A program made the position numbers and the translations under genes. This document shows, piece by piece, positions 1,423-24,783 of a DNA stretch of 32,000 nt. Origin of the DNA: Candidatus Saccharimonadota bacterium (GTDB lineage Bacteria > Bacteroidota > Bacteroidia > Cytophagales > Amoebophilaceae); NCBI RefSeq assembly GCF_964030745.1, contig NZ_OZ034918.1, positions 780,001 through 812,000 on the forward strand, read 5' to 3'. Each line of letters starts with the position of its first letter. Position 1 is the first letter of the stretch. The notes below the pieces were generated by a model. It worked only from the letters and a program-made list of their open reading frames with translations. It had not been told where the DNA came from and made no database searches.

Positions 1423-2832
1423 ATGGAACATAAGAAAGTTTTGCTACTGTGGCTGCTAATATTGTGTAGCTGTAACACTGGCGTTAAGCAAGATATAGCT
1501 CCTGGCCCCCCATCGTTTTGTTTGAAGGTCCATACCATGCTTAATGATCCTAGTAGGGGTTGCAATGCTGATTCTATGTCTGCTACTGATTCTCATGCAT
1601 ACCTTAGACGTGCTGCTGATTTAATCTCCCTTTCTACCGATAAATTTATTTCCAATTTTTGTTCCGCTATTGATGCTGCCCCCTCTGTTGTTGCTGATGA
1701 TTTGACTACTGCTTTTCATTCTGCTGCTGGTGTTAGAACTGCTGCTGATGATCAAGCTAAAACTGCTCGTGATGCTACCAGTGCTGCTCAGCAGGAGGCT
1801 GACACTATTGCTGCTGCTCAGAAGGTTGCTGCTAGCCATGCTAATGCTGATGCCCGTGCTGATATTGCCCGTGCTGATACTACTGTTGCACGTGCTTTTG
1901 GGGATAATATTGTTGCACCCGCTCTTTACGTTCGTGCTGCTTCTAAATGTGCTGTTGCTGCTGCTGCTGTTGCTCGTGCTGTTTCTGCTTATACTGCTGT
2001 TGCTGCTGCTTATGCTGCTGCTGCTCGTGCTGCTTATGTTGCTTATACTGCTGGCTATGTTACTGCTTTTGCTCAAGTTGCCCGTGCTGCTGCTAATGCT
2101 CGTGCTGCTGCTGCTACTGCTCATGATTTTGCTGCTGATGCTGCTCATTTTGTTGCTGCTACTCATCATTATCTTGCTAGTGCTGAAAATGCTGCTGCTG
2201 CTGCTGCTTGTGCTGCTACTTGTACTGCTAGTATGCGTTCTGTTGCTTCTGTTGCTGTTGCTCGTGCTGCTGCTACTGATTCTGTTTCTATTGCTGCTAC
2301 TGTTGCTGCTGGTATTCGTCATGCTGCTGATGCTGCCCGTGATGCTTCTAATGCTGCTGAGACTGCTGCTGCTGATGCTCGTGCTGCTTCTGCCTCTGCC
2401 TCGGTTGCTGCTGCTTATGCCTCTTCTGTCCGTGCTGCTAATGCTTCTCTTGCTGCTTTTGAGGGTGCTTGTCGTGTTGCACGTGCTGCTAGAGTGTGTA
2501 TTCGTTGCTGCTTTAATATCCTTAGTGCTTCTTCTGCTCCTGCTAATAACGCCCGTCGTCTTGCTTCTCTTCGTAACTACACTGAATCTGCCAATGCTGC
2601 TTCTGCTGCTGTTGATGACGGTTATGCTGCTGTTGTCTCTGCTCATGCTGTTGCTTGTCATGAGGCTTCTCTTGCTCGTCGTGAGGTTGCTGCCGGTTGT
2701 GTTGATCCTGATGTTGTTGCTGCCGTTGCTGCTGCTACTCATTTTGTCTCTGCTGCTTACATTGCTGTTGATTTTTGTGCGCATATTCAACGTTTGCAGC
2801 GAGGCGCTGCTGCTCATTTTCCTGTTCGGTAG
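1423..2832 (+). CDS. Alanine-rich putative lipoprotein, low-complexity, NNT-codon tract
   Basis: N-terminus MEHKKVLLLWLLILCSCNTG has a basic n-region, a hydrophobic core and a lipobox-like LCSC. About 400 aa dominated by Ala follow. This frame was preferred over the overlapping +2 (Leu-rich) and antisense (Ser-rich) open frames because only it has a signal peptide and extends beyond the biased tract. Confidence 0.6.
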   Translation: MEHKKVLLLWLLILCSCNTGVKQDIAPGPPSFCLKVHTMLNDPSRGCNADSMSATDSHAYLRRAADLISLSTDKFISNFCSAIDAAPSVVADDLTTAFHSAAGVRTAADDQAKTARDATSAAQQEADTIAAAQKVAASHANADARADIARADTTVARAFGDNIVAPALYVRAASKCAVAAAAVARAVSAYTAVAAAYAAAARAAYVAYTAGYVTAFAQVARAAANARAAAATAHDFAADAAHFVAATHHYLASAENAAAAAACAATCTASMRSVASVAVARAAATDSVSIAATVAAGIRHAADAARDASNAAETAAADARAASASASVAAAYASSVRAANASLAAFEGACRVARAARVCIRCCFNILSASSAPANNARRLASLRNYTESANAASAAVDDGYAAVVSAHAVACHEASLARREVAAGCVDPDVVAAVAAATHFVSAAYIAVDFCAHIQRLQRGAAAHFPVR

Positions 2833-3175
2833 TTATTAAAACTATATAAAAACATTGCCTATCTATTGCAATAAAGTTATGGTATAGTATGTCGTATGTT
2901 CACCATTGTGGTAATAAAAGCTATTGTGTGCTCCGATAAAGGAATGCGGTGCTTCAGTAAAACTTGGGTCTTTGAGTACGCTGCTTTTCAGTGGATCAGA
3001 AAAATAGCTTGTTTGAAGCTCATGCAGTGGGCGATTTCTGTTTTTTTCGATGCAAAATAGATCTTTTTATTATTTTTATTCTGTGCCCAATCTTTTCTAA
3101 GCGGCTAAAAATAGGGTGGTATATTAAATAATACATTCGCAAAAATGCTATTCTGTTTAATAGTTAATAACATTC

Positions 3176-3197
3176 ATTCCTTAAGTTGACGCCATTG
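3176..3197. repeat. 22-bp perfect inverted-repeat arm (partner at 10277-10298)
   Basis: ATTCCTTAAGTTGACGCCATTG is the exact reverse complement of CAATGGCGTCAACTTAAGGAAT at 10277-10298. The flanks show weaker similarity over roughly 60 bp. Confidence 0.8.
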
Positions 3198-3318
3198 AGC
3201 CTTTAGTTGCATTTGTTTTTAAAAAACCTTTTGATTACCTTTCGCCCATAAGCAGCAGAAAAGAAATCAACTGTTTAGGCTGTAGATGACTGTCTGCTAA
3301 ATAGTAAATAAGCCAAGG

Positions 3319-3564
3319 ATGAACTTATCGATCATATCGCCTACTGGTAAACTTTTTAATGGAGAGGTGCATAGTGTAATGTTGCCAGGTACACTTGGTC
3401 CATTTCAGGTGCTTCCCAATCATGCTCCTGTTGTCAGTAGTTTAACAGCAGGGAAGATCACTTATACGGTTGGAGCAACATCATCGTCCGTTTCAGTCAG
3501 TAGTGGTTTTACCTCAATAGCTGATAACCAGGTTATGGTAGTTTGTGAACCTATCGAATGGTGA
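3319..3564 (+). CDS. atpC: F0F1 ATP synthase epsilon subunit (short Bacteroidetes-type, 81 aa)
   Basis: MNLSIISPTGKLFNGEVHSVMLPGTLGPFQVLPNHAPVVSSL matches the conserved epsilon N-terminal beta-sandwich pattern (V.P...F.G.V..V.LPG..G.F.VL..HAP....L). Confidence 0.85.
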   Translation: MNLSIISPTGKLFNGEVHSVMLPGTLGPFQVLPNHAPVVSSLTAGKITYTVGATSSSVSVSSGFTSIADNQVMVVCEPIEW

Positions 3565-3823
3565 ACATAAAGTGAACATAAAGGATATAAAATTGCTGAT
3601 CACAAATAGTTTTTGCAGAAGGTCTATGGTTGTAAATGTTTTTTTATGACTTTTAAGCTAAAAATGATAACTCTTTAAGAGTTTGAGTGAACAAGTGATT
3701 TAAAAATGTAATATATTAGGCAATAAAGCCTCTTGGCTCATTTAAGTGGATCGATGCAAGGAGTAGCCAACCTCGTAAACCCAATAAATGGGCCTACGGG
3801 TACAGATCATTAAAATAATAACA

Positions 3824-3960
3824 CCCCGCTTTCGAAAGCTATTTGTAGGGGGCAATTTTGGAGAGCAGTATGGTCGAGCGTTGCAGCATGCTCCGCTCTA
3901 CTTTGAAGGGTATAGACTGGTTTTAAAATTGCCATTGGCAATCACGTTTCGAAAGAGGGG
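3824..3960. repeat. 137-bp MITE-like element, family 2, directly upstream of the CIS operon
   Basis: Ends CCCCGCTTTCGAAAG (3824-3838) and GTTTCGAAAGAGGGG (3946-3960) are inverted repeats. It has the same length and the same CTATTTG-AG-G-GCAAT interior start as 922-1058. Confidence 0.4.
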
Positions 3961-3977: not shown

Positions 3978-4538
3978 ATGCTACATCATTGCACTAGTAC
4001 TATATTATCTGAGGCGAATCAATACATTCAATCTAAGGCGAATGTAAAGGGGCCGGCTATATCCTTGGCGATTCTGGGCAATTCGCAAGCAGAAAGCAAG
4101 TCCTCGAAAGGCATTATGATGCGATTGGTGGATATCACTTCTGTAGAATTGTGCAGCAATCCTACGCAGTATGTGCCACAGGGCGATGGTTTTATTGTAC
4201 GCAAAGTGCCAGAAGCATTTAATCTTTATTTTTTGTTTTCTATTGACTATAAGCCATCTGACCTGTTAAAAAATTTAGAATTACTTGCTTATGTGGCAGC
4301 ATTTTTTCAAACTAAATCACACTTTGATGGCTCTAATACGCCTATTTTACAGGAAATAGGGATTGAGAGTTTTTCTGTCGAGTTGGTTAAAATGACTCCA
4401 CCAGAGAAGGCCATGCTTTGGGAAAGCTTACATGCTCCTTATAGTCCTTCTTTACTCTATAAGGTGGGGCTGATATTTATAGGAGATGCTACGATGGGTT
4501 TAAAGGTAGTATCAGCATTTTCATCACGTGAAAGGTAA
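3978..4538 (+). CDS. DUF4255 / Pvc16-Afp16 N-terminal-domain-like protein (CIS tail cap/terminator candidate)
   Basis: 186 aa, first gene of the CIS operon, 5 nt before the next ORF. The size, the position ahead of the sheath, and the pattern (AISLAILGN...IMMRLVDITSVE...PSLLYKVGLIF) resemble DUF4255 proteins that open Bacteroidota CIS loci. Judged by eye only. Confidence 0.5.
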   Translation: MLHHCTSTILSEANQYIQSKANVKGPAISLAILGNSQAESKSSKGIMMRLVDITSVELCSNPTQYVPQGDGFIVRKVPEAFNLYFLFSIDYKPSDLLKNLELLAYVAAFFQTKSHFDGSNTPILQEIGIESFSVELVKMTPPEKAMLWESLHAPYSPSLLYKVGLIFIGDATMGLKVVSAFSSRER

Positions 4539-4543
4539 TCGTT

Positions 4544-5404
4544 ATGGCATTTACCACAAAATTATTTCGAATAACTATTTCAAATAATTACTATAAGTCT
4601 AATAATGCCTGCAATGATTTCGATATAGAACCAACCAGGTCTACCGCTTCCTGGATGGCTGCACGCAGGGTGCGCATGTTGCGTCACCTAGATGGCATAG
4701 AGCTGATATGGCTTTCGCAGGATTATGATCATCCGTTGGAGTTGTTTCAAAAAAAGGCAGATGGCATTACCCTTTCTTTTGTGATGACATTAAAGAATAG
4801 CCAAGCATTGAATCTTTTGGAATTAGAGTCTGGTTATTCAACAGGCCAAGTCTACCATTTGTATAATTGGCATGCACACCATCATAATTGGCTGCACAGC
4901 AAACCCTTTATGGGTAGTGTTGATTTGGTTAAGATTGAGGAAGTAGCCCATTACCCTACCGGGCCAGGTGGGAATGTTTTTGCGCTGATTGATATAGATC
5001 TTAACCATTTAGGCCAAGCGATATCCAAGCAAAAAGAGCCTCTTTTTGTTGAGCCTATTACCTATACCATTAAGGTTCAAAACCGCTCCACTTTTTGGAG
5101 ATATTATTTAGTAGATACCAACAAGCGGCTTGGTGGATCTTTGGGTATTCTCTCTAAAGGAGATGCCTCTTACTTTGGCAAAGTAAAGGTTTCTACAGAG
5201 TTTCCTAATACCTATTGTGCAGAATCTACCATGCCCATGGAGCTTTGTGATCAATATGATCGTTCTTTTTCACTTTGTAAACTTGGTGGCGAAAAAGGTG
5301 CAACCATATTATTAGAGAAATTGCCTTATCCTACTTTTGATTCGCTCAAAAAGGATAAGGTTAATAAAAAGAAACACTATAGTGATATAGTTGTATATGT
5401 TTAG
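4544..5404 (+). CDS. Hypothetical protein, CIS-operon-associated (286 aa)
   Basis: Long ORF tightly packed between the DUF4255-like and sheath genes. No recognisable motif. Confidence 0.6.
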   Translation: MAFTTKLFRITISNNYYKSNNACNDFDIEPTRSTASWMAARRVRMLRHLDGIELIWLSQDYDHPLELFQKKADGITLSFVMTLKNSQALNLLELESGYSTGQVYHLYNWHAHHHNWLHSKPFMGSVDLVKIEEVAHYPTGPGGNVFALIDIDLNHLGQAISKQKEPLFVEPITYTIKVQNRSTFWRYYLVDTNKRLGGSLGILSKGDASYFGKVKVSTEFPNTYCAESTMPMELCDQYDRSFSLCKLGGEKGATILLEKLPYPTFDSLKKDKVNKKKHYSDIVVYV

Positions 5405-5450
5405 TTTAAACTTAATTTTAACTGTTATATAATTCATAAAATCAAATAAA

Positions 5451-6938
5451 ATGGCTGAAAATTTAAAAACTCCCGGCGTGTACATCGTCGAGAAGGATAC
5501 GGGTGCCAACGCCGTGGTTCAAGTATCAACTGCAGTTCCTGCTTTTATAGGTTTCACTGAAAGGGCTGAAATTAATGGGAAGTCGTTTCATATGAAGCCG
5601 GTTCAGATCTCTTCACTTTCTGAATATGAGTTGTTTTTTGGAGGACCAGCAGTCCCTGTCTATACCATTAAGGAGGTAACCAGTGGGGATAAAGATTTGG
5701 TGATGAATGGCAAATCTTATCTCATGGAGCAGAGTGCAAACTCTACATTTTATCTATATAATAGCTTGAAGCTATTCTTTGATAATGGTGGTGCAGATTG
5801 TTTTATTGTCTCTGTTGGTCAATATGGTGATCCAAATGTACAGTTAGAAATTACACCAGATGTATTCAAACAAGGTATAGATACGCTAGCTGGAGAAGAG
5901 GTGCCCACTATGTTGTTAATGCCAGACTCACTCTTACTAGATGAAGAAGATGCCTCTTACTATGCGGTGCAGACCTATGGGTTGGCACATTGTGGCAAGT
6001 ATCTGAATAAAGTCGCATTATTTGATATATGGGGTGGCAACAAGGAATTATCTATAGAGGATAAAAATAAATATGTCAACAGGTTTCGTGAATATATTGG
6101 ATTAGATAATTTGAGTTATGGTGCCGCCTATTATCCATGGGTTAAAACAAACATTATCCCATTGAATAGTATTGATTATAGAAATTTTGATCTAGAGTCG
6201 CTCAAGGGTGTATTACAAGAAGAGCACAAAGCAATGCTCTCTAATCTAATGAGCGCTTCTACAGAGAAAGAGAAAGTCTATTGGGATGCTGGGCTAAAGA
6301 ATACCAGTAAGGAGTACAAATTGCTGCGTAAAACTATTGCAGATCGGTTAAATATTCTTCCAGCTGCTCCAGCTATGGCTGGACTTTACACCAGAACAGA
6401 TAAAGCCAGAGGGGTATGGATTGCACCAGCCAATCAAAACTTAAACTCTGTGGTGGAGCCGATGGTTAAAATTACCCATGAAGAGCAAGAAGCACTGAAT
6501 GTAGATGGTATTAGCGGGAAATCGATCAATGCCATTCGGACCTTTAAAGGAGCGGGTGCTGCAGTCGTTTGGGGAGCGAGAACCTTGGCTGGCAATAGTC
6601 CAGAATGGCGGTATATTAACGTCAGAAGGTTGTTTATTCTGATTGAGCAATCTATCAAAAATGCAGCATTTTCGGTTGTGTTTAGGCCAAATGTTCCTGT
6701 TACTTGGGCAGTTGTACAGGGCATGATTTCCAACTTCCTAACCAATCTTTGGCGGCAAGGTGCTTTAGTAGGTGCAAGTCCTGCAGAGGCATTCACCGTA
6801 CTTTGTGGGTTGGGTGAGACCATGTCTCAAGATGATGTAAATGAAGGCATCATGCGTATTTCAGTAAAAGTATCGGCTCCTAGACCAGCTGAGTTTATTG
6901 TGATCACCTTTGAACAAAAAATGGGTGCAGATGGTTAA
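5451..6938 (+). CDS. Contractile tail sheath protein (Afp2-4 / Pvc2-4 / phage tail sheath family)
   Basis: N-terminus MAENLKTPGVYIVEKDTGANAVVQVSTAVPAFIGFTERA and C-terminal VWGARTLAGNSPEWRYINVRRLFILIEQSIKNA...FRPNVPVTWAVVQGMISNFLTNLWRQGALVGASPAEAFTVLCG are the hallmark sheath N- and C-terminal signatures. Confidence 0.93.
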   Translation: MAENLKTPGVYIVEKDTGANAVVQVSTAVPAFIGFTERAEINGKSFHMKPVQISSLSEYELFFGGPAVPVYTIKEVTSGDKDLVMNGKSYLMEQSANSTFYLYNSLKLFFDNGGADCFIVSVGQYGDPNVQLEITPDVFKQGIDTLAGEEVPTMLLMPDSLLLDEEDASYYAVQTYGLAHCGKYLNKVALFDIWGGNKELSIEDKNKYVNRFREYIGLDNLSYGAAYYPWVKTNIIPLNSIDYRNFDLESLKGVLQEEHKAMLSNLMSASTEKEKVYWDAGLKNTSKEYKLLRKTIADRLNILPAAPAMAGLYTRTDKARGVWIAPANQNLNSVVEPMVKITHEEQEALNVDGISGKSINAIRTFKGAGAAVVWGARTLAGNSPEWRYINVRRLFILIEQSIKNAAFSVVFRPNVPVTWAVVQGMISNFLTNLWRQGALVGASPAEAFTVLCGLGETMSQDDVNEGIMRISVKVSAPRPAEFIVITFEQKMGADG

Positions 6939-6954
6939 ACATGCACCTGTGTGT

Positions 6955-6981
6955 ATATAGGGGGTATTTTCCCCCCTATAT
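6955..6981 (+). terminator. Perfect 10-bp stem hairpin just after the sheath gene (possible attenuator/partial terminator)
   Basis: ATATAGGGGG (6955-6964), a 7-nt loop, then CCCCCTATAT (6972-6981), followed by TTATT. Confidence 0.4.
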
Positions 6982-7033
6982 TTATTAAAGATTATTGCTT
7001 ATAATTTGAAAAATATTTAAAACTGAAATAACC

Positions 7034-7498
7034 ATGGCTGATAACTTATTAGTACCTGCTATAGTCCATTTTAATTTGGGCTCCTCAAAGGTTAGTATAA
7101 CGGACTACCATATAGCAGTTACCATAGAAAATGGATCCGAGTATATTAGATCAGTTAATGCACAAGGTAAGTCTGCTTATGCTATATGTAAAGGAGGAGA
7201 GATTCGACAAAAGGCTGATATTAAAGTTTCTATACTTAAAACACCAGATGGAAAATTTGATGATGATATTAAAAAAGTAGAAAAAAACTTAGATGCCAGT
7301 AAGGAAAATGATCCTAAAAAATATGTGGAAAATATGCTTTTTAGTTTTGCAACCAATGATGATAAGCCATTCGCACATATACAATTCCAAGGGTATGTTT
7401 GTGAGAAGAGCGAGGATGTAGATCCTGAAACTCAAATACCTGTAGTGACAGCTGAACTTGCTGTTTATGATCCAGTTAGCTTTGTGATTAAACAATAG
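7034..7498 (+). CDS. Small CIS-operon protein (154 aa), possible divergent tube/Hcp-like component
   Basis: Position between the sheath and the canonical tube gene, and tube-like size. No motif recognised by eye. Confidence 0.5.
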   Translation: MADNLLVPAIVHFNLGSSKVSITDYHIAVTIENGSEYIRSVNAQGKSAYAICKGGEIRQKADIKVSILKTPDGKFDDDIKKVEKNLDASKENDPKKYVENMLFSFATNDDKPFAHIQFQGYVCEKSEDVDPETQIPVVTAELAVYDPVSFVIKQ

Positions 7499-7572
7499 CG
7501 TACTGCATTTATGATTGAGTTTTTAGAATATATTAAGTAGTTTAACTAACTAGAATTTCACAGAAAGATATT

Positions 7573-8016
7573 ATGCAAAGAGTAACTATTGATTATAAAC
7601 ACTTTAATAAAGCAGGTTTTGATAGTAAAACTTGTAGTGTTTTGGTTGTTGGTATACCAAATCAAAAAACATCGACCCAGGCAACCGTATATGATACGGC
7701 ATCCTCTGCACCACTTCGTTATAATCAACGCAGTGCTCCAAAAATTGCAACTTTCACCGTAGATTTCTTACCCCGTATAACGAGCAAAGATTTGTTATCA
7801 AAAGCACATGATTTGGTTAAAGAAGTGTCTGGGGATAAGTATAATCCAGAACCATTTACCCTTTGTGTACATAAAAAAGACGGATCAATAGATACAAAAA
7901 AAACGCTAAATGATGTGATCGTACAAAGCGTAAGCTTGTTTTTGGATAGGAAGAACGAAACTACAGGTGAAAAGGGGTATGTTCGTATACGCTTTACTTT
8001 ACAAGGATTAGTATAG
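7573..8016 (+). CDS. Small CIS-operon protein (147 aa), possible divergent tube/Hcp-like component
   Basis: Same arguments as 7034-7498: co-directional, short gaps, tube-like size. Confidence 0.5.
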   Translation: MQRVTIDYKHFNKAGFDSKTCSVLVVGIPNQKTSTQATVYDTASSAPLRYNQRSAPKIATFTVDFLPRITSKDLLSKAHDLVKEVSGDKYNPEPFTLCVHKKDGSIDTKKTLNDVIVQSVSLFLDRKNETTGEKGYVRIRFTLQGLV

Positions 8017-8063
8017 CGAGATAAAAAGTAATCATATGATGTTTTTAACCTTGTGCTGATTTT

Positions 8064-8513
8064 ATGGCTGATTTTAATTTAGTCCACTCGCATTCTTTTC
8101 AAGTAGAGGTATTGGGTGTAACAGATGGTAGTTCCCCTGAATATTTCTATAAGATAGAAGGGTTAAATAATTCTTTGAATATGGAGCCCTATCTGCCTGG
8201 AGGAGCTAATAGGCCCTATTATAGAGCCAATGCATGTGAGACTACTGATTTAATCTTGACTAGGCCATTAATAGAGGGTAAAACGAAAATGACCGTTTGG
8301 TGCGAGGAGGCCATTGATAAAGGCCTTTTTAAGCTTACACAAGCCCATATTTTGGTCCTTAACAAGGAAGGCAAGATTCTGGCACAGTGGAAGATAGAGG
8401 ATGTCTATCCAAAGGGCATAGCCATTACGCCATTCCAGTTAAATGGTCAAACAGATCTTGGAATAGGGGAAACCATTACGATTGGCTATTCTAGGCTTGT
8501 ACGGACAAAGTAA
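8064..8513 (+). CDS. CIS tail tube protein (T4 gp19 / Afp1-Afp5-like)
   Basis: HSFQVEVLGV...FYKIEGLNNSLNMEPYLPGGANRPYY....DLILTRPL...VWCEEA...ILVLNKEGKILAQWKIEDVYPKGIAITPFQLNG...IGETITIGY follows the conserved tail-tube pattern (F.V.I.G...F..vsGL....e..ey.eGG.n......g.....nl.L.R........W.....). Confidence 0.8.
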   Translation: MADFNLVHSHSFQVEVLGVTDGSSPEYFYKIEGLNNSLNMEPYLPGGANRPYYRANACETTDLILTRPLIEGKTKMTVWCEEAIDKGLFKLTQAHILVLNKEGKILAQWKIEDVYPKGIAITPFQLNGQTDLGIGETITIGYSRLVRTK

Positions 8514-8562
8514 TATCGATAATGCTTCATCTGCTTGGTCTACAAAATTAATTTTATTAATT

Positions 8563-8736
8563 ATGTCTGTTGTAATTAAAGAGCTGCTGATCCAGCTTAA
8601 AGTTTGTGAACCCAATAACCAAGTGGACAATGCTAAAAACTTGCCAAGTAATTTTGCAATGCACCCTACGGAGCAGCAAAAATTGGCGTTAGAACGAGAT
8701 TTTTTACGCCTATTGGAAGACCGGGAAGCAAGGTAA
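8563..8736 (+). CDS. Afp6/Pvc6-like mini-protein (DUF5908-like, 57 aa)
   Basis: The internal ATG at 8563 gives MSVVIKELLIQLKV..., resembling the M-x-I-E-I-K/R-E-L-x-I-K/R-x-x-V start of DUF5908 proteins. Those sit between the tube and tube-initiator genes in CIS loci. The longer ORF from 8482 would overlap the tube gene. Confidence 0.5.
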   Translation: MSVVIKELLIQLKVCEPNNQVDNAKNLPSNFAMHPTEQQKLALERDFLRLLEDREAR

Positions 8737-8757
8737 AATAAACTTCTTTCTATAGTT

Positions 8758-10119
8758 ATGAGTAAAGTTAGTAAACTAGTTATTAAAGCATGTAGTGACA
8801 ATAAATTTTCCTCTTTTACAGGGGAATTTATTACATCTATTAATCCAGAAAATTTAGCGATTAAAAGTGCAGTGTCCTACCATGTGCCTGAAGGAATGTC
8901 GGGTGCTAACTTGCTTAAATACCGTGGTTCTCCTCCAAAACTACTCTCCTTTAGTCTGTTGTTTGATAATACAGGGATTATGCCTGGTAGCAATGCCATT
9001 GCTGTAATGGAACAGGTCAAGCAGTTACAAGATGTTGCCTATAGTGTCCATAAAAAGAATAATGCCCCTAATTACATTCGTGTGATTTGGGGGCAGATTG
9101 ATTTTAAAGGCAGGTTGGTAGCGCTAGACATCGTTTATTCTATGTTTCAAGTAGATGGTACACTGGTTAGAGCAGAGGCGCATATATCTGTATTAGAGGA
9201 GCTGGTTCCTTTAGGTAAGGGAAAAGCTGCTGCAGGTGTAGACAGTAACTATACCAAGCCATCTGGTGCCAATGCAACTGCAAGTCGTAAGGTGGCTGCT
9301 AGTCAAGCTACATCTAACCAGGAGGCTTTTGCCCCAACGCCTAATGGTATGAGTGGCGCCTATAGCGGTGCACCACCTGGTGCCTACGATGGAGGTCCTG
9401 ATGCCATCTATCATGGGTCGAATGGCACTGGGGGAGCGGTTTATAGTGCCAGCACGGGTGCTACACCTTCTGGTGGAGGTCTCTCCACTGTTGGCGCGGC
9501 TCCTTCGAGCAATTATGATGCTGGTTATGACGCTGGTACTGGTCGTTCTGCTAGTTATAGTGCTAACCCTGGTGCTGGTCCTTCTGGTAATAGCTTAAAA
9601 GGCGGTGTTGCGGGTAATGGACCTGGTGGCAGTGGGGGGGGCGTTGGGGGAGGAGGTCATGGGCCGGCTCTAGGGGCAAGTCAATCTGGAAGTGCTGCAA
9701 GTGGTGGATCACTAACTAGTGGTTCAGGGCAGTCTGGTCGGACTACTCCTCCTGCAGAAGTAGGTGGCCATTCCAGTAAAGCTGGCACAAGTGGTAGTAG
9801 TCATGGCGTGGGCAGTGGTGCGGCTGGATCTACAAAAAATAATGTGGCTGCTGGATCAGTGAGTGGTGGAGCTGGAGGGAAAGGTAGTGGTTTGAAAGCG
9901 GGTAGCATTGCAGCCGCTGGTGTAGCGGGTAGTGCTGCTGCAGCTGCAGCAGCTGCAAATGGAGCAGATAGTTTGCGTAAACTAAAGGCAAATGTTAATC
10001 TTATGCAGACAATGAAAAATAAAGTCAGTTTCTGGAGAAGGCTCAAAAATTTTGCTAAAAAAACATGCCCTAAGGCATATGATGCTGGAAAAAAAGTAGT
10101 AAAATCAAGCGGTTTTTAA
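8758..10119 (+). CDS. Afp7-like CIS tube-initiator N-terminal domain fused to a ~250-aa Gly/Ser/Ala low-complexity region and a basic C-terminal tail
   Basis: Residues 1-150 (KLVIKA...F.GEFITSINPENLAIKSAVSY...LLKYRGSPPKLLSFSLLFDNTG......VMEQVKQLQDVAY...NAPNYIRVIWGQIDFKGRLVALDIVYSMFQVDGTLVRAEAHISVLEE) fit the conserved tube-initiator pattern (NPe.l.......y......f.g..p..l...l.fD.......v...v..L........pp.v.f.WG...f.g.l.sl...y..F...G.P.RA.v...l.E). Confidence 0.7.
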   Translation: MSKVSKLVIKACSDNKFSSFTGEFITSINPENLAIKSAVSYHVPEGMSGANLLKYRGSPPKLLSFSLLFDNTGIMPGSNAIAVMEQVKQLQDVAYSVHKKNNAPNYIRVIWGQIDFKGRLVALDIVYSMFQVDGTLVRAEAHISVLEELVPLGKGKAAAGVDSNYTKPSGANATASRKVAASQATSNQEAFAPTPNGMSGAYSGAPPGAYDGGPDAIYHGSNGTGGAVYSASTGATPSGGGLSTVGAAPSSNYDAGYDAGTGRSASYSANPGAGPSGNSLKGGVAGNGPGGSGGGVGGGGHGPALGASQSGSAASGGSLTSGSGQSGRTTPPAEVGGHSSKAGTSGSSHGVGSGAAGSTKNNVAAGSVSGGAGGKGSGLKAGSIAAAGVAGSAAAAAAAANGADSLRKLKANVNLMQTMKNKVSFWRRLKNFAKKTCPKAYDAGKKVVKSSGF

Positions 10120-10129
10120 AGCAAGAGTA

Positions 10130-10147
10130 GGGGAAAGTATTTTCCCT
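10130..10147 (+). terminator. Weak hairpin plus T-rich tract at the end of the CIS operon
   Basis: GGGAAA (10131-10136), loop GTAT, TTTCCC (10141-10146), then TATTTCATTTTCTC. Confidence 0.3.
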
Positions 10148-10276
10148 ATTTCATTTTCTCTTGTTTAATAACAATCTCTCGATATCCAAATATCTTTCAA
10201 TTAATTTACCTACATTTCAAGGTATCCATTCGTTACTATGGGTATTGTTTTTCTCAAAAAGCAGTATGTGTTCAAC

Positions 10277-10298
10277 CAATGGCGTCAACTTAAGGAAT
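10277..10298. repeat. 22-bp perfect inverted-repeat arm (partner at 3176-3197)
   Basis: CAATGGCGTCAACTTAAGGAAT is the exact reverse complement of 3176-3197. Confidence 0.8.
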
Positions 10299-10360
10299 TT
10301 GTCTTATTTTTTACTCAGCACTGTGGTTGAAAACGCATTTCTTCTAGTTTTTTAAAGAAC

Positions 10361-10432
10361 TTCATTACACGCCTGTAGCTGGGCCCCTTATCTCCTTCGA
10401 TAAAAAGTCTGTCCCGATAGTAAATAGCTGAA
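10361..10432 (+). repeat. Partial (left-end) copy of MITE-like family 1
   Basis: TTCATTACACGCCTGTAGCTGGGCCCCTTATCTCCTTCGATAAAAAGTCTGTCCCGATAGTAAATAGCTGAA matches the left ends at 10521-10592 and 14178-14246. Confidence 0.7.
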
Positions 10433-10520
10433 CAATAGATTGTTTCATTGCCTTTACTGCGCGCCAAATCTTTTATCGGTGGCCATAAGTGCTGCGTATA
10501 CCAATGCTCCATGTAAAAAA

Positions 10521-11137
10521 GTATCCATTCACGCCTCTGGCTGGCCGCCTTATCTCCTTCGATAAAAAGTCTGGCCCGATAGTAAATAGCTGAATCGATA
10601 CATTTTTCAGCGGGAAAATCGTGAACTCAGCCCGCAAGCGGGCTTCAAACAGACGATTTTCTAATCCGCTGAAAAAGATATCGCTCAGGTGTTAGTGTTT
10701 TACTAGAGCGCCATTTTTTTATCGAAGGAGACGCGGGGGCTGGTAATGGACTAGCCACTTGTTTTTTCAGCCAAACGTAGCGTATGCGTTTAACGCTATG
10801 TCCATAGTAGAAAAATGCCCCTGTAAAAAGTGGGGAAATAGGCCTCATCCCTTGCAGATGATTAGGAAAAACAGATTCCTTTGAAGCCCGCGCAGCGGGC
10901 GACTTCTGTTTTTCCATCTGTAAGGGGTGAGGTCCCCCAACTTTTTACCGAGGGCTTGATTTTTTGTCCACTTTTTTATCAAGAAAAAAGTGGAATACAA
11001 TTCATTATTAACCAGTGACGTGAATAGATACAAAAAAGGTCTCCCACTTTTTACCGAGGGCTTGATTTTTTGCCCACTTTTTTATCAAGGAAAAAGTGGA
11101 ATACAATTCATTATTAACCAGTGATGTGAATAGATGC
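10521..11137 (+). repeat. MITE-like family 1, copy A: full element with a nested 116-bp palindromic module (10822-10937) and a tandemly duplicated right-end unit (10938-11031, 11041-11137)
   Basis: Terminal inverted repeats GTATCCATTCA (10521) and TGAATAGATAC (11021-11031). Internal long hairpins are centred on CAGCCCGCAAGCGGGCT (10628-10644) and GCCCGCGCAGCGGGC (about 10887-10901). Internal arms GGGCCCCTTATCTCCTTCGAT and ATCGAAGGAGACGCGGGG are mutually complementary. Related copies lie at 14178-16105 and 24535-24783. Confidence 0.75.
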
Positions 11138-11168
11138 GTTAAATTTCCTTGGTTATCAATAATAAAAA

Positions 11169-11945
11169 CTACAATGGAAGCTGGTTGAGCGTTGGCTCAA
11201 AGATTGTTTCAGCATTTTGTGTGGTGATGGATGCCACTTCTGCTAAGGTTACTCCTTTTATTGCTGCAACTGTTTCTGCTGTATAACGTAGGTAGCTTGG
11301 CTCGTTGGGTTTTCCCCGAAAAGGTACTGGCGTTAAATACGGACTGTCTGTTTCTAAGACCAAATGTTTGAGATCTATAGCGGCTACTGTTTCGGCTAAC
11401 CCATTTTTAGGTATCGTAATAATCCCACCAATCCCTAGCAAAAAACCCAGTGCTATACATTTTTTTGCTTCTTGTAAGCTGCCTGTGAAGCAGTGAATCA
11501 CTCCTCTTAGACTACCGTCCTGTTCTTTTTCCAATACTTCAATAACTTCCCTAAAAGCATTTCTGCAATGAATGGATAGAGGCAGATGGTGGCGCTTGGC
11601 TAAATCAAGTTGAATCTTAAATGCTTCCTGTTGTGCTGCAAATAAAGTAGTATCATGATATAGGTCTATACCAATTTCACCCACTGCTATAAACGCAGCT
11701 TTGTCAAGCCATTGTTCTACTAAGTATAACTGTTTGGAAAAGTTTTGTTTGATGTGGCAAGGGTGGATGCCCATCATGGGTAGGCAAGAAGGGTATCTTC
11801 CTGCTACTTCCATCAGCCCTCCGATGGTTTCTTCATCTATATTGGGCATATAGATTTTTTTGATATGATGTTTTTGTGCGTTTTCTAAAACCAGTGGTAA
11901 TGTAAGGTCATATACATGTGCATGGGTGTCAATAAATTGCATCAT
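11169..11945 (-). CDS. TatD-family metal-dependent hydrolase (DNase)
   Basis: FIDTHAHV at the N-terminus, plus GEIGIDLY, SIHCRNA, VIHCFTGS and LVLETDSPYL, the conserved TatD metal-binding blocks. Confidence 0.85.
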   Translation of the reverse strand: MMQFIDTHAHVYDLTLPLVLENAQKHHIKKIYMPNIDEETIGGLMEVAGRYPSCLPMMGIHPCHIKQNFSKQLYLVEQWLDKAAFIAVGEIGIDLYHDTTLFAAQQEAFKIQLDLAKRHHLPLSIHCRNAFREVIEVLEKEQDGSLRGVIHCFTGSLQEAKKCIALGFLLGIGGIITIPKNGLAETVAAIDLKHLVLETDSPYLTPVPFRGKPNEPSYLRYTAETVAAIKGVTLAEVASITTQNAETIFEPTLNQLPL

Positions 11946-14152: not shown

Positions 14153-14403
14153 ATTTTCTTAATGCGACAAAGGGCTTGTATCTATTCATGCTTGTAGCTG
14201 GGCCCCTTATCTCCTTCGATAAAAAGTCTGGCCCGATAGTAAATAGTCGGCCCTGAAGTATTCATACTTCAAGTTATTTATTAAAAAAATAATCACCTGC
14301 CCCATTTCAATTTTTTCATGTTCTGTATCTATTCTAATCCTGGTATCTGTATACGTTAGTTCAGGATAAAGCATCTTAGTGCTATAGGTTTTATTTTACC
14401 TGA

Positions 14404-15249
14404 TTAGGTGGGTATTAGGAATGTTTTTCTTGTAATAAGGCGTAGATTATGGCTAATAGCACATAGAATAGCATTGAGTTTGTCTCCCAATATTCCTTTC
14501 AAGTAGTTAACCGCTAATTTACCATCAGATTTCATATGACCAATATGTGGTTCAATAGCAGATCTTCTTTTTAGTGCTTTTTTGAGACTAGGCGTTATAC
14601 CTCTTTTAGAGCCGCTTATAAATATATTACATTGACTATTAGGTATATTATGACCTCTGTAACCCCTGTCTACGAAGACGTGTTTTACCTGAGTACCAGA
14701 TAGTTTTTCTGCTTGTAATAAACTTCTATGCAAGGTATGTCCATCATATTCATTAGGATGTAAAGCTTCCGTTGATACAATCAAGCCTTGTTTATGGGTG
14801 AGCGTAAATTGCACCTTACAACCATACTCATAGGGATTTAAAGCCTTACCTTTACTTACGCAGTAAACAGCAGGTTCATGGATACTATAGACTTTATTTT
14901 TACTTTTTTTTGATTGGTTAATAATCCTTTTACTTATAGAAAGCAGATGTCTAAACTGGGTGCGTATTGCTTCATCACACGATTGTATAGAGCGTTCTAC
15001 ATCTCTTACCACCCGACCAAGATAGTTTTTTAATGTTTTAACGCCTTTGGCTAAACGTTTAAACTGTTTAGCATGTGCATAGCCATCTACTTTACGTTTG
15101 ATAGCTGGCCCTAGACGTTGGTAGGTTTGACGGAGTTTAACGCCTGTTTTCTTAGCTATAGCCACTAGTTTTTGTCTAGCCTTATTAAGCAACGAAGAAT
15201 CAGTTGGATAGCGAATATTTTTCTCCATTACAGTAGTGTCGGATATCAC
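14404..15249 (-). CDS. IS5-family transposase, DDE catalytic part, orfB (-1 frame relative to orfA; frame open from 15282)
   Basis: DTTVMEKNIRYPTDSSLL (first D), VFVDRGYRGHN (second D) and RRSAIEPHIGHMK (E-x6-K of the YREK signature). Confidence 0.8.
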   Translation of the reverse strand: MISDTTVMEKNIRYPTDSSLLNKARQKLVAIAKKTGVKLRQTYQRLGPAIKRKVDGYAHAKQFKRLAKGVKTLKNYLGRVVRDVERSIQSCDEAIRTQFRHLLSISKRIINQSKKSKNKVYSIHEPAVYCVSKGKALNPYEYGCKVQFTLTHKQGLIVSTEALHPNEYDGHTLHRSLLQAEKLSGTQVKHVFVDRGYRGHNIPNSQCNIFISGSKRGITPSLKKALKRRSAIEPHIGHMKSDGKLAVNYLKGILGDKLNAILCAISHNLRLITRKTFLIPT

Positions 15250-15272
15250 TTTTTCAAGTTCTTTTGGGCAGA

Positions 15273-15683
15273 CTACTTTTTTTTAATGGCTAATTGTATA
15301 GTCATCGATAAGATCTTATTAAGACCTTCTGCTCCCAATCTTTGACGCCAACGAGTTAATGAACTAGGGTGACAAGCTGCCTTAATCTGAAAATAATCAT
15401 AGCCACAAAGGTATTGCCAATAAGGATTTTCTACCCATCTAGCAACTACTTGCTCATCAGAAACTTGGTACATATGACTGATAATGAGTAGGCCTACAAT
15501 CAAACGAATAGGTAAAGGAGGTTGACCGGGTCCATAGCTAAAGCTGCGGTCTAAATCTGATTCTAAGGATTGCCAAGGAATGGAATCAGCTAACTGAAAT
15601 AAGGCGTGTTGGGGATTAAGAATCCCAGATAAGCGTTGCTCAAAAAGCCTACCACAAGAATGATTTATCCTCTTAGATTTCAT
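15273..15683 (-). CDS. IS5-family transposase, N-terminal part (InsH N-terminal/DUF772-like), orfA
   Basis: LFEQRLSGILNPQHALFQLADSIPW...PGQPPLPIRLIVGLLIISHMYQVSDEQVVARWVENPYWQYLCGYDYFQ is the typical IS5-family N-terminal domain. It ends in ...AIKKK-stop inside an A8 run. Confidence 0.8.
   Translation of the reverse strand: MKSKRINHSCGRLFEQRLSGILNPQHALFQLADSIPWQSLESDLDRSFSYGPGQPPLPIRLIVGLLIISHMYQVSDEQVVARWVENPYWQYLCGYDYFQIKAACHPSSLTRWRQRLGAEGLNKILSMTIQLAIKKK
15277..15284 (-). other. A_AAA_AAG slippery site linking transposase orfA and orfB (-1 frameshift site or homopolymer indel)
   Basis: Minus strand reads GCC ATT AAA AAA AAG TAG. A -1 slip on A_AAA_AAG continues as GTA GTC TGC CCA..., giving ...AIKKKVVCPKELEKVISDTTVMEKNIRYPTD. 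Confidence 0.6.
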
Positions 15684-16118
15684 CCCTATTTTGCAAGGTT
15701 TTATACAAAAAAACTCTAAAAATGGTTATTATATATACTATAATATACGGTTTTTTATATTCATAAACAAATAAATATATAATATTTCAGGGCCGACTAA
15801 ATAGCTGAATCGATATCTTTTTCATCGGGAAAATCGTGAACTCAGCCCGCAAGCGGGCTTCAAACAAACGATTTTCTAATCCGATGAAAAATATATCGCT
15901 CAGGTGCTAGTGTTTTACTAGGGCGCCATTTTTCATCGAAGGAGATGCGGGGCTGGTCATGGGTTAGCCATTGTATGCGTTCAGCGCTATGGCCATAGTA
16001 GTAAAATGCCCCAACTTTTTACCGAGGGCTTGATTTTTTGTCCACTTCTTTATCAATAAAAAAGTGAAATACAATTCATTATTAACCAGTGACGTGAATA
16101 GATACAAAAGGTAGATCA

Positions 16119-17921: not shown

Positions 17922-20864
<2,943 letters not shown>

Positions 20865-20963
20865 TTTTTTCTTGATTTTGCTTTTACAGTAGTCAATTAC
20901 ACTCTTGTTTTAGGGTGGTAAATGGTTGATCTATCAACCTATAAAATTATAGTATTAAAAATA

Positions 20964-21072
20964 AAGGCGACGAAAGCGCTGGTGTGCACCTCTTCCCATT
21001 CCGAACAGAGCAGTTAAGCCCAGCAGCGCCGATGGTACTTCGGTAATACGCGGGAGAGTAGGTAGTTGCCAT
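20964..21072 (+). rRNA. rrf: 5S ribosomal RNA
   Basis: GGCGACGAAAGCGCTGGTGTGCACCTCTTCCCATTCCGAACAGAGCAGTTAAGCCCAGCAGCGCCGATGGTACT...GGGAGAGTAGGTAGTTGCC, with 5' GGCGAC pairing to 3' GTTGCC. Confidence 0.92.
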
Positions 21073-21088
21073 CTTTTTATTTTTTTTT

Positions 21089-21161: not shown

Positions 21162-23207
21162 ATGTTAACAATCCCTCTGTTTTTACACACATTTTTTCTT
21201 AGCATATCGCTTCCTGCTATACAGGATAAGCTAGAAGCATTAAAAAATGATCCTACCATTACAGAACTTACTTTTTTTAAAGGGCGTATAAAAGTCGCTG
21301 AAGTTGAGGCCCTTGCGCAGGGGCTAAAGGGTACCCAAATTACAAAGCTTGTGTTTGCTTGCGAGTTTGTAGGAGATGCTGGCGCTGAGGCGCTTGCAGC
21401 AGTGTTGAAAGATACAAAAATTACAACCCTTGAACTATATTGTACGAGCATAGGAGACGCTGGCGCGAAGGCACTGGCAGAAGGATTAAAGGGCTCGCAC
21501 GTTACCACACTTAACCTTGATTCTAATCTCATACATGCTGCTGGCGCTGAGGCGCTTGCAGCAGTGTTGAAAGATACAAAAATTACAACCCTTGACCTGA
21601 GTGGTAATTCTATGGAGGCTGCTGGAGTTAATCTTCTTATACAAGGATTAAAGGGTACGCAAGTTAGAACGCTTGCCTTGAATGGCAATCATATGGGAGA
21701 CGCTGGAGCTAGTTTTCTTGCCCAAGGATTAAAGGATACGCAAATTACAAAGCTTGACCTGAGTATCAATCACATTGGAGAAGTTGGCGTTAGGGCTCTT
21801 GCACAAGGATTGAAGGATACGCAAGTTACAGAGCTTGATCTGAGCCGCAATAAGATAGGAGCCGCTGGCGCGAAGGCACTTGCACAACTGTTGAAAGATA
21901 CCAAAATTACAACCTTGAACCTGAGTCATACCAACATAGGAGATGCTGGTGCTGAGGCACTGGCACAAGGACTGAAAGATACCCAAGTTACAACACTTGA
22001 CCTCAGTAACACCAATGTAGGAGACCTTGGTGCTAAGGCCCTTGCACAAGGACTCCAAGGTACACAGGTTACAACACTTAACCTTGGTAAAACTAAGGTG
22101 GGAGCTGTTGGCGCTAAGGCCCTTGTGCAAGGATTAAAGGATACACAAATTACAGAAGTTGGTATTTATGAATGGCACTATTCTGATGTGCAATCTGCAA
22201 AAGGGTTAGTGATAACACTTGATCTTAGCCATCCTGATGTAGGGCCTGCTAGGGTTCGGGTACTTACAAGAGGGTTAAAAGGTACCCGAATTACAAGGGT
22301 TAATTTGACTGATAATCACATAGGAAATGCTGGCGCTAAAGCCCTTGCGCAAGGATTAAAGGATACTCAAATTATAAAGCTTGACCTTGATAAAAATGGA
22401 ATAGGAGATACTGGTGTTAAGGCCTTGGTGGAGGGATTAAAGGATACGCAAGTTAGGGAATTTATCCTTGCTAATAATTTTATAGGAGCAGCTGGCGCTA
22501 AGGCCCTTGCCAAAGGGTTAAAGGATACTCAAATTATAAAGCTTGACCTTGATGGTAATAGGATAGGAGACCCTGGTGTTAGGGCACTTGCATCAGTGCT
22601 CAAAGATACTCAAATTAGGAAGATTAACCTTCGCCGCAATGTAATAGGAGAGGCTGGAGCTGTGGCACTTGCACAAGTACTAAAGGATATTCCAATTACA
22701 ACACTTGACCTGACTGATAATGTAATAGGAGAGGTTGGCGCTATAGCACTTGCACCAGTGCTCAAGGATACTCAAATTACAGAGCTTAACCTTACTGGCA
22801 ATTATATAGGGGATGCTGGCGCTATAGCACTTGCACCAGTGCTCAAGGATACTCACATTACAGAACTTTGCCTTAGTCACAATGATATAGGGGATACTGG
22901 CGCTATGATACTTGCACCAGCGCTCAAGGATACTCAAATTACAGAGCTTGACCTTGGTAGTAATTATATAGGGAATGCTGGTGCTAGGACGCTTGCACAA
23001 GGATTAAAGCATACGCAGATTACAAAGATTAGTCTTTATAATAATAACATAGGAGTTGTTGGTGCTAGAGCCCTTGCAAAGGGGTTAAAGGAGACGCAAG
23101 TTAGGGAGATTAAGCTTGATAGCAATAATATAGGTGCCGATGCGGCTAAAGTCCTTGCACAAGAATTTAAGAACTGTAAAAGCAAATTGAAATTTAGCAT
23201 ATTTTAG
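21162..23207 (+). CDS. Leucine-rich repeat protein, RNI/NLR-like class, ~24 tandem 27-residue repeats (candidate host-interaction effector)
   Basis: 81-nt periodicity. Repeat consensus TQITxLDLSxNxIGDAGAKALAQGLKD. Two units share a 56-nt identical block (21378-21433 and 21540-21595, 162 nt apart). One degenerate unit lies near 22140-22270. Confidence 0.85.
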   Translation: MLTIPLFLHTFFLSISLPAIQDKLEALKNDPTITELTFFKGRIKVAEVEALAQGLKGTQITKLVFACEFVGDAGAEALAAVLKDTKITTLELYCTSIGDAGAKALAEGLKGSHVTTLNLDSNLIHAAGAEALAAVLKDTKITTLDLSGNSMEAAGVNLLIQGLKGTQVRTLALNGNHMGDAGASFLAQGLKDTQITKLDLSINHIGEVGVRALAQGLKDTQVTELDLSRNKIGAAGAKALAQLLKDTKITTLNLSHTNIGDAGAEALAQGLKDTQVTTLDLSNTNVGDLGAKALAQGLQGTQVTTLNLGKTKVGAVGAKALVQGLKDTQITEVGIYEWHYSDVQSAKGLVITLDLSHPDVGPARVRVLTRGLKGTRITRVNLTDNHIGNAGAKALAQGLKDTQIIKLDLDKNGIGDTGVKALVEGLKDTQVREFILANNFIGAAGAKALAKGLKDTQIIKLDLDGNRIGDPGVRALASVLKDTQIRKINLRRNVIGEAGAVALAQVLKDIPITTLDLTDNVIGEVGAIALAPVLKDTQITELNLTGNYIGDAGAIALAPVLKDTHITELCLSHNDIGDTGAMILAPALKDTQITELDLGSNYIGNAGARTLAQGLKHTQITKISLYNNNIGVVGARALAKGLKETQVREIKLDSNNIGADAAKVLAQEFKNCKSKLKFSIF

Positions 23208-23624
23208 TGTATTATAGGTAGCATTCAGAGTTGAAAATTGCTAAAACTGCAATTAAAATATTGGATAACATCGCCTCCATGCTAGCCACACACAATGTGC
23301 TAGCCCACCTTTGATGCAAGGCCATTCCAATCAGTCGTATCCCCTCTATGGTCAATAGAAAATTTTCTGCATCATAGTCAATAGATTAATTGTACCGTAA
23401 TATAAACAATCATACTACGCTAGTGTAGTGTGTATTGCACATGCATCTTGCTTTTATATGCTTTATTCCATAACTCATAAGAAAGGATAGCTTTATTCGA
23501 CTCTATCTGTTTTTATCTTTTAACTGATATAGCTATGGGTAAGAAATATATAAAAGTGTTGGTGTTAAAGTTGGTATCTATAACTCAGTTTATCCAATGT
23601 ACTATTTTAAGTAGTGAATTGCCT

Positions 23625-24488: not shown

Positions 24489-24534
24489 CAAACAGGATGT
24501 GTGATCATTTCAACAGAAGCGAGACATTTTTCTT

Positions 24535-24783
24535 GTATCTGTTCAACACTATGGCCATAGTGATAAAATGCCCCTGTAAAAAGTTTCGAAATAGAAGCCA
24601 CCCCTTGCAGATGATTGGGAAAAACAGATTCCTTTGAAGCCCGCGCAGCGGGCGACTTCTGTTTTTCCATCTGTAAGGGGTGGCTTCCGGAACTTTTTGC
24701 CGAGGGCTTGATTTTTTGTCCACTTTTTTATCAAGAAAAAAGTGGAATACAATTCATTATTAACCAGTGACGTGAATAGATAC
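24535..24783 (+). repeat. MITE-like family 1, copy C: short variant (right half) carrying the 116-bp nested palindromic module (24575-24690)
   Basis: Starts GTATCTGTTCAACACTATGGCCATAG and ends TGAATAGATAC (24773-24783). The module has the near-perfect long inverted repeat GAAGCCACCCCTTGCAGATG...CATCTGTAAGGGGTGGCTTC around GCCCGCGCAGCGGGC. Confidence 0.75.

Follow-up and report, generated by a model that had tools for sequence, protein, structure and literature searches.

The locus and its genes

We have analyzed a stretch of 32,000 nt of contig NZ_OZ034918.1 (the window; all coordinates below are window positions) that carries an operon for a contractile injection system (CIS), a machine derived from phage tails. 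Pfam searches were carried out on the translations of its open reading frames (ORFs). Eight co-directional ORFs on the plus strand occupy positions 3978–10119, with intergenic gaps of 5, 46, 95, 74, 47, 49 and 21 nt, and this arrangement is as described in a previous interpretation made from the letters alone (the sequence-only reading), which gave eight co-directional ORFs with gaps of 5–95 nt. That reading placed the operon in the class of the antifeeding prophage (Afp or AFP), the Photorhabdus virulence cassettes (PVC) and subtype iv of the type VI secretion systems (T6SS), and the Pfam matches to sheath, tube, cap and CIS_tube families agree with it. It also named five of the ORFs correctly (cap, sheath, gp19 tube, DUF5908/Afp6-like protein and Afp7-like initiator), with a DUF5908 match that is weak and below the Pfam cut-off. 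Three ORFs had been called unassigned. All three are indeed without a Pfam match, but 4544–5404 and 7034–7498 can now be assigned and only 7573–8016 remains. The features of the locus are the following.

3824–3960, no strand: imperfect palindromic insertion, strain-specific (inverted repeat with 36-nt arms, 72% complementary, 65 nt apart)
3978–4538, plus strand: cap protein of the Cis16A/Afp16 N-domain type, orthologue of CAHE_0456/Aasi_1072 (Pfam Pvc16_N, E 2.8e-18)
4544–5404, plus strand: cap adaptor of the Cis16B family, 286-aa ORF (profile matches to known adaptors)
5451–6938, plus strand: contractile sheath, orthologue of CAHE_0458/Aasi_1074 (Pfam Phage_sheath_1C, E 1.8e-10; Phage_sheath_1 just below the cut-off)
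6960–6975, plus strand: G+C hairpin following the sheath gene, with a T-rich tail, a terminator-like site (GGGGGTATTTTCCCCC) and putative partial terminator
7034–7498, plus strand: divergent protein with a predicted tail-tube/Hcp fold, orthologue of CAHE_0459/Aasi_1075 (AlphaFold2 model and Foldseek)
7573–8016, plus strand: lineage-specific 147-aa protein, orthologue of CAHE_0460/Aasi_1076 (position and orthology)
8064–8513, plus strand: gp19-type tube protein, orthologue of CAHE_0461/Aasi_1077 (Pfam Phage_T4_gp19, E 1.8e-12)
8563–8736, plus strand: probable 57-aa plug of the Cis6/Alg6/DUF5908 type, orthologue of Aasi_1078 (57-aa reading, from the ATG at 8563, of ORF 8482–8736)
8758–10119, plus strand: Afp7-like tube initiator (Pfam CIS_tube over residues 3–147, E 4.6e-32)
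10125–10151, plus strand: terminator-like hairpin at the operon end (12-pair stem with a T-rich tail, 6 nt past the stop codon)
10363–11135, no strand: nested copies of a dispersed repeat resembling miniature inverted-repeat transposable elements (MITEs), with further copies within the window

The sheath shares 98% identity with its counterpart in the Cardinium endosymbiont of Nabis limbatus (the Nabis strain), 96% with that of C. hertigii, 77% with Aasi_1074 of Amoebophilus and 46–47% with Algoriphagus sheaths. Since the closest sheath is that of a Cardinium and the same operon is found in a Logan assembly, the window can be assigned on sequence grounds to a Cardinium genome (Amoebophilaceae, Bacteroidota). 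The eight genes are orthologues of CAHE_0456–0463 of the Cardinium strain cEper1, a block that Table S5 of Penz et al. (2012) pairs with Aasi_1072–1079 of Amoebophilus (PMC3486910).

Cap, cap adaptor and sheath

The first gene codes for a product of 186 aa with a Pvc16_N domain only, located at the same position as Aasi_1072 in Amoebophilus. The second, for which the Pfam search gave no match, belongs to a family always found between cap and sheath in ~40 clade-Ib-type loci. A profile of 34 sequences of this family matched SalCis16b (9r9n_C, E 1.2e-51), the cap adaptor of AlgoCIS (7adz, 1.4e-25) and All3326 of Anabaena (7b5i, 4e-22), and a profile of Amoebophilaceae sequences only still matched All3326 (E 1.1e-5). 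By these profile matches 4544–5404 is the Cis16B cap adaptor. Work on AlgoCIS and SalCIS has established what cap adaptor, plug and initiator do, and in both systems deletion of the Cis16B adaptor disrupts sheath assembly (PMC8894135, PMC13266070). The double cap, i.e., a short Pvc16_N cap together with a separate Cis16B, is a feature that distinguishes clade Ib from clade Ia and is present here.

In cEper1 the sheath gene is expressed at ~2400–3900, against ~300–650 for the next three genes (PMC5698495). The hairpin located just after the sheath gene at 6960–6975 would fit this approximately six-fold fall.

The tube-fold ORFs

The inner tube of these machines has the gp19/Hcp fold, and we found this fold in 8064–8513 by its Phage_T4_gp19 match and in 7034–7498 by its model. 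The latter had no sequence match in Pfam, NCBIfam, PHROG or PDB, and its family is small (25 representatives among 1.84 billion proteins). Its AlphaFold2 model reached a mean predicted local distance difference test score (pLDDT) of 91.9, and the top PDB matches in Foldseek were all tubes: Anabaena CIS (7b5h_AN), AlgoCIS (7adz), Streptomyces CIS, Hcp and phage tail tubes. Compared with a 141-residue chain of 7adz, the template modelling (TM) scores were 0.65/0.70 and the root mean square deviation 3.8. As modelled, 7034–7498 certainly carries the tail-tube/Hcp fold.

The adjacent ORF 7573–8016 has homologues in Amoebophilaceae-type loci only, in every case with the tube-fold ORF on one side and the gp19 ORF on the other, and gave no match in Pfam, NCBIfam, PHROGs or PDB sequence searches, nor by profile. 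Its AlphaFold2 model was poor (pLDDT 50.6, only two usable sequences). A PAS/LOV domain was considered and discarded, the Foldseek matches on that model having E values above 0.04 and being meaningless. Two weak hints point in another direction: the predicted order of secondary-structure elements resembles that of the neighboring 7034–7498, and the best hhalign match was the adjacent gp19 family, collinear and non-significant (probability 5.6%). Profiles of the 7034–7498 and 7573–8016 families aligned by hhalign to tube families gave probabilities below 6% throughout, and since this was so even for the ORF with a clear tube model, profile methods are blind to the kinship of 7034–7498 with tubes. 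A word-index search with both proteins concatenated returned only two proteins.

Which of the two tube-fold proteins forms the bulk of the tube can be argued in both directions. Behind the sheath gene, related loci of the clade Ib type carry a pair of gp19 paralogues, and the Amoebophilaceae one recognizable gp19. In AlgoCIS these paralogues are Alg1, the tube, and Alg5, the first layer of the initiator (PMC8894135). With hhalign, the 8064–8513 family matched the second tube paralogue (Alg5 position) with E 1.6e-20 and the first (Alg1 position) with 4.2e-11. Because the gp19 ORF matches the Alg5-position paralogue better, 7034–7498, located at the Alg1 position, is favored as the putative bulk tube. 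On the other hand, the gp19 ORF is more conserved (89% identity versus 77–81%), and for this reason it is favored in turn. The expression values of the three small genes in cEper1 (~520, 466 and 398) do not separate the candidates (PMC5698495).

We put forward tentatively that in the Amoebophilaceae the canonical major tube gene beside the sheath was replaced by two fast-evolving, lineage-restricted genes, 7034–7498 and 7573–8016, the second being possibly of tube fold too. If so, the bulk-tube subunit would be invisible to sequence profiles, a tube variant undescribed for any solved CIS. And if 7573–8016 does have the tube fold, the tube or tube-initiator stack would be built of four distinct layers with that fold, where three are usual.

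Probable plug and Afp7-like tube initiator

The plug gene (8563–8736) gave a weak Pfam match to DUF5908, with E 0.0068, below the cut-off. Iterative searching joins it to Aasi_1078, which carries PF19265, and position and length agree; Aasi_1078 is a published homologue of Alg6 (see PMC8894135 for AlgoCIS Alg6).

In the Afp7-like protein the CIS_tube domain is followed by a low-complexity linker of ~250 residues (~150–400) and then by a degenerate LysM-like motif and a basic tail. Pfam found no LysM domain in it, but the motif (…DSLRKL…) aligns with the weak LysM region of a canonical relative (locus L016; Pfam E 8.9e-4, just below the cut-off). The linker is hypervariable between lineages, being rich in Gly/Ser/Ala in the window, in Glu/Lys/Asn in the locus L030 and in Ala/Thr in Amoebophilus, while the N-terminal domain and the C-terminal motif are conserved. 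The Gly/Ser/Ala composition lifts the local G+C to 51%.

The spike and baseplate genes are very probably located elsewhere

We tested 18 other large ORFs of the window for spike, PAAR, gp25, Baseplate_J, tape-measure and AAA+ domains and found none, in agreement with the sequence-only reading, which had found these genes missing and had offered as one explanation that the baseplate half is encoded elsewhere. The Nabis strain, the closest complete genome, shows precisely this: its tail half is at ~87–92 kb, an intact module of VgrG, PAAR, gp25 and an 828-aa Afp12-like protein is at ~952–957 kb, and VgrG is ~860 kb away from the tail half. Nine Cardinium or Cardinium-like genomes have all four genes of the module intact, and two more loci, which are truncated, have VgrG; upstream of VgrG, none of the 11 loci has a tail-half gene within the available flank. 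The Afp7-like gene is the last of the operon in the window, as it is in the Nabis strain and in L027, two further strains of Cardinium. We did not find all the structural genes in one contiguous cluster, as in single-locus systems of the extracellular CIS (eCIS) or Afp type.

In Amoebophilus a gap of 866 nt separates the end of the same eight-gene block from VgrG, PAAR, gp25, an 831-aa protein and a CIS_TMP protein, which come next, and this link between tail and spike is kept in two Amoebophilus-like metagenome loci (L029 and L107). From these comparisons, the break after the Afp7-like gene appears to be old and common to Cardinium, and the scattered layout ancestral and compatible with function.

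There is prior evidence of this dispersal. Penz et al. (2012) described 16 AFP-like genes in five genome regions of cEper1, and regular fibril arrays in Cardinium by electron microscopy. Their Table S5 lists VgrG, PAAR, gp25 and the Afp12-like gene as CAHE_0763–0760, the Baseplate_J/Afp11-like and fibre-like genes as CAHE_0037/0036 and the Afp14-like gene as CAHE_0118; for the Baseplate_J and Afp14-like genes of Cardinium this work is our only source (PMC3486910). Mann et al. (2017) found all 15 AFP-like genes of cEper1 transcribed, with the sheath 10th–11th in expression (PMC5698495), and Siozios et al. (2019) compared the organization of the cluster across seven Amoebophilaceae genomes (PMC6387759). 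The split architecture, presented in the sequence-only reading as the part worth study, had therefore been published in 2012 and compared across seven genomes in 2019.

Two observations concern the neighborhoods of the halves. In a divergent relative (locus L109, 707–3221) the gene called immediately before the sheath codes for a transpeptidase, and neither a cap nor an adaptor gene is among the upstream calls, so that further fragmentation of the cluster apparently occurs in other lineages. In the Nabis strain VgrG is preceded by atpA, atpG and a PqqF-like gene (L006, 6468–9750), and the tail half of the window is preceded by atpC. We discarded these atp neighbors as traces of an old junction because atpA/atpG homologues were not found upstream of VgrG in other Cardinium loci.

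Comparison with known systems and mode of action

Very probably, these eight ORFs make up the distal-end and tube half of the T6SS-iv/AFP-like system of Cardinium, a phage-tail-derived CIS of clade Ib whose spike and baseplate genes (VgrG, PAAR, gp25, Afp12-like, Afp11-like and others) lie elsewhere on the chromosome. The operon would be one of several unlinked transcription units for a single machine, with the order cap (Cis16A), cap adaptor (Cis16B), sheath, divergent tube-fold protein, lineage-specific protein, gp19-type tube, plug (Cis6) and Afp7-like initiator. By analogy with the work on Amoebophilus, AlgoCIS and SalCIS, plug, initiator and spike would nucleate the tube on the baseplate, the sheath would polymerize around the tube until cap and cap adaptor end the assembly, and the contracting sheath would eject tube and spike from the bacterium into the host cell. 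Several points weigh against this interpretation. The injection system of this strain is known from its genes alone, and that it has spike and baseplate genes is deduced from the closest genomes; expression could be altered by the palindromic insertion, which ends 17 nt short of the first ATG; ORF 7573–8016 is without assignment; and either 7034–7498 or 8064–8513 may form the bulk tube.

Among the known systems, cEper1 has the orthologous eight-gene block (CAHE_0456–0463) with its AFP-like genes also scattered, and transcribes them in the wasp host (PMC3486910). The window comes from a different strain, with the palindromic insertion before the first gene, and unlike the Nabis strain and L027 it does not have two DegP-like genes after the operon. 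The T6SS-iv of Amoebophilus asiaticus (Aasi_1072–Aasi_1079) has the eight genes in identical order, including the three without Pfam domains, and differs in that VgrG, PAAR, gp25, the 831-aa wedge protein and CIS_TMP follow after the 866 nt, a link that is broken in Cardinium. Its Afp7-like protein has another linker composition and, after the LysM-like motif, a hydrophobic stretch missing in the window protein. AlgoCIS of Algoriphagus machipongonensis (PMC8894135), an extracellular clade Ib eCIS, and SalCIS (PMC13266070) share cap 16A, adaptor 16B, sheath, tube-fold proteins and, probably, the plug (Alg6) and an Alg7-type initiator. Clade-Ib-type relatives have two gp19 paralogues between sheath and plug, whereas the Amoebophilaceae lineage has one plus two divergent ORFs, and Alg7 has a C-terminal LysM domain where the window protein has the degenerate motif after its long linker. 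The clade Ia systems, Serratia Afp and Photorhabdus PVC, also have sheath, tube, Afp7-type initiator and Afp16-type cap, but no cap adaptor, three sheath paralogues, and all genes plus toxins and an AAA+ ATPase in one cluster. Their similarity to the Cardinium proteins is low (Penz et al., 2012, Table S6, PMC3486910).

Clade Ib includes both modes of action, and the set of cap, cap adaptor, probable plug and initiator found here is that of the extracellular AlgoCIS, so that the machine might be a particle released from the cell (an eCIS like Afp, PVC and AlgoCIS) and not a cell-anchored, T6SS-like one. We regard this as unlikely. The closest characterized relative, the T6SS-iv of Amoebophilus, is described as anchored in the inner membrane (a description that exists for Amoebophilus only), and electron micrographs show AFP-like fibril structures within Cardinium cells (Penz et al., 2012, PMC3486910). 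The eight genes themselves do not reveal the mode of action.

Selection on the eight genes

The nonsynonymous to synonymous ratios (dN/dS) were calculated for the window against the Nabis strain and against the third Cardinium locus, L027, at dS values of 0.5–0.9. The results were, in this order:

cap: 0.10 and 0.06
cap adaptor: 0.21 and 0.24
sheath: 0.01 and 0.03
7034–7498: 0.19 and 0.15
7573–8016: 0.30 and 0.33
gp19 ORF: 0.10 and 0.07
plug: 0.41 and 0.32
N-terminal domain of the Afp7-like protein: 0.08 and 0.12

By these ratios all eight genes are under purifying selection (0.01–0.41), which argues that the module is not decaying. The sequence-only reading had left room for a non-canonical or decaying module, and some features of the region could be read as those of a dead remnant that lost its baseplate half and no longer assembles: there is no baseplate gene in the 32 kb, the genome is rich in insertion sequences (IS) and MITE-type elements, a palindromic element is inserted just before the first gene, and two adjacent genes are deleted. 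However, the eight ORFs are full length with the dN/dS values given, all the other Cardinium genomes that we examined retain an intact spike/baseplate module, and the cEper1 orthologues are all transcribed, the sheath very highly, so that we give very little weight to this possibility.

The palindromic element at 3824–3960 is absent from the Nabis strain (L004) and from L027, both of which align on either side of it. The sequence-only reading had called it a MITE. It is a real imperfect inverted repeat near the first start codon, ending 17 nt before the ATG, but the label is unverified, since we found no second copy in the window itself or among the ~1 Mb of loci retrieved. A block at ~3640–3730 is conserved among strains and may be the promoter region, in which case the insertion would lie in the 5' leader.

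Repeats and lost genes downstream of the operon

After the stop codon of the Afp7-like gene, the hairpin at the operon end (10125–10151, with its T-rich tail) and the ~1 kb of nested repeats (10363–11135) are both found as previously described, followed by the convergent housekeeping gene TatD (11169–11945). Two tandem Trypsin_2+PDZ (DegP/HtrA-like) genes come directly after the Afp7-like gene in the Nabis strain (L004 14937–17957) and in L027 (10621–13485), and in the Nabis strain TatD comes after them. No remnant of these genes was found in the window at 10120–11168, where the repeats take their place. Because both strains break at the same point, with DegP-like genes and without repeats, the split predates the repeats, and the repeats at 10.36–11.14 kb mark a later, strain-specific loss of ~3 kb (the two DegP-like genes) and not the ancestral split. 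We also record that in these two strains the DegP-like proteases adjoin the Afp7-like gene, and that the Alg7 linker is reported to be cleaved in AlgoCIS (PMC8894135).

The sequence-only reading had suggested, as one of two alternatives, that the local repeats caused the split, with a misassembled junction as a further possibility. The repeats begin ~240 nt past the operon, a short-read assembly of the same strain (Logan, SRR15069915), with the operon 100% identical, breaks 186 nt past the stop codon, and related repeat copies occur in Cardinium sp. TP, ~430 nt upstream of VgrG, and in the Oedothorax strain, inside the spike module and immediately downstream of gp25. These last copies say little because the repeat family is generally dispersed, with further copies in the window (24533–24783, and 14178–14246 plus 15798–16109, a single copy interrupted by an IS). 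With the same break followed by DegP-like genes in two other strains, VgrG neighbors that differ between strains, a TatD-phosphoesterase-MGMT block beyond the repeats that is syntenic with the Nabis strain, and an independent read set identical up to the point where it breaks, both a repeat-mediated split in this lineage and an artefact that hides baseplate genes are highly improbable.

The repeats could also have been taken for the ends of the IS at 14.4–15.7 kb. This was rejected: the IS (14244–15799, transposase on the minus strand) is bounded by 19-nt terminal inverted repeats of its own, with a TAAATAG duplication flanking it, and since it interrupts a repeat copy the repeat family is independent of it. 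Its transposase is split in two minus-strand ORFs, DUF772 (136 aa) and DDE_Tnp_1 (281 aa).

Other features of the window

The other large ORFs are housekeeping genes, mobile elements or candidate effectors. The genes identified are Ppx/GppA, ATP synthase epsilon, TatD, phosphoesterase, MGMT, LD-carboxypeptidase, the IS, ThyA, NUDIX, 23S and 5S rRNA, a leucine-rich repeat (LRR) protein, an alpha/beta hydrolase, CCA/poly(A) polymerase, thioredoxin, an ABC transporter and an LpxZ-like gene. The 23S (17923–20865) and 5S (20963–21074) rRNA genes have no 16S and no tRNA in the 17.9 kb upstream, so the operon is unlinked; unlinked rRNA operons are common in reduced endosymbiont genomes. Directly after the 5S gene, 21162–23207 codes for a 681-aa protein made almost entirely of LRR_6-type repeats on highly self-similar DNA, possibly a eukaryote-like host-interaction protein and a possible cargo. 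The 317-aa ORF 23535–24488 had no match in Pfam, NCBIfam or PHROGs, and the dispersed-repeat copy at 24533–24783 lies directly after it.

The segment 900–3209 (2.3 kb) is absent from the Nabis strain and has a G+C of 47% and a strong T-over-A skew. ORF 1423–2832 (469 aa) has a lipoprotein-like N-terminus (…LLILCSCNTG…) and a very alanine-rich, low-complexity body with internal repeats, and gave no family match in Pfam or the other family searches of window ORFs. There are long ORFs on the opposite strand too, and the Logan contig also has ORF 1423–2832 called.

Significance

The tail operon and its split layout are real but already known, and the importance of the machine, its dispersed layout and its expression are in the literature. 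What we add is the Cis16B cap-adaptor identity of 4544–5404, the tube fold modelled for 7034–7498, the indication that the repeats by the operon reflect a strain-specific loss of two DegP-like proteases and not the ancestral split, and the recognition of 7573–8016 as a conserved, fairly fast-evolving and lineage-restricted gene that is still unexplained. Cardinium is widespread and manipulates the reproduction of arthropods. These components belong to the one machine it has that is a candidate for protein injection, and this machine is the presumed route for the effectors of its cytoplasmic incompatibility.

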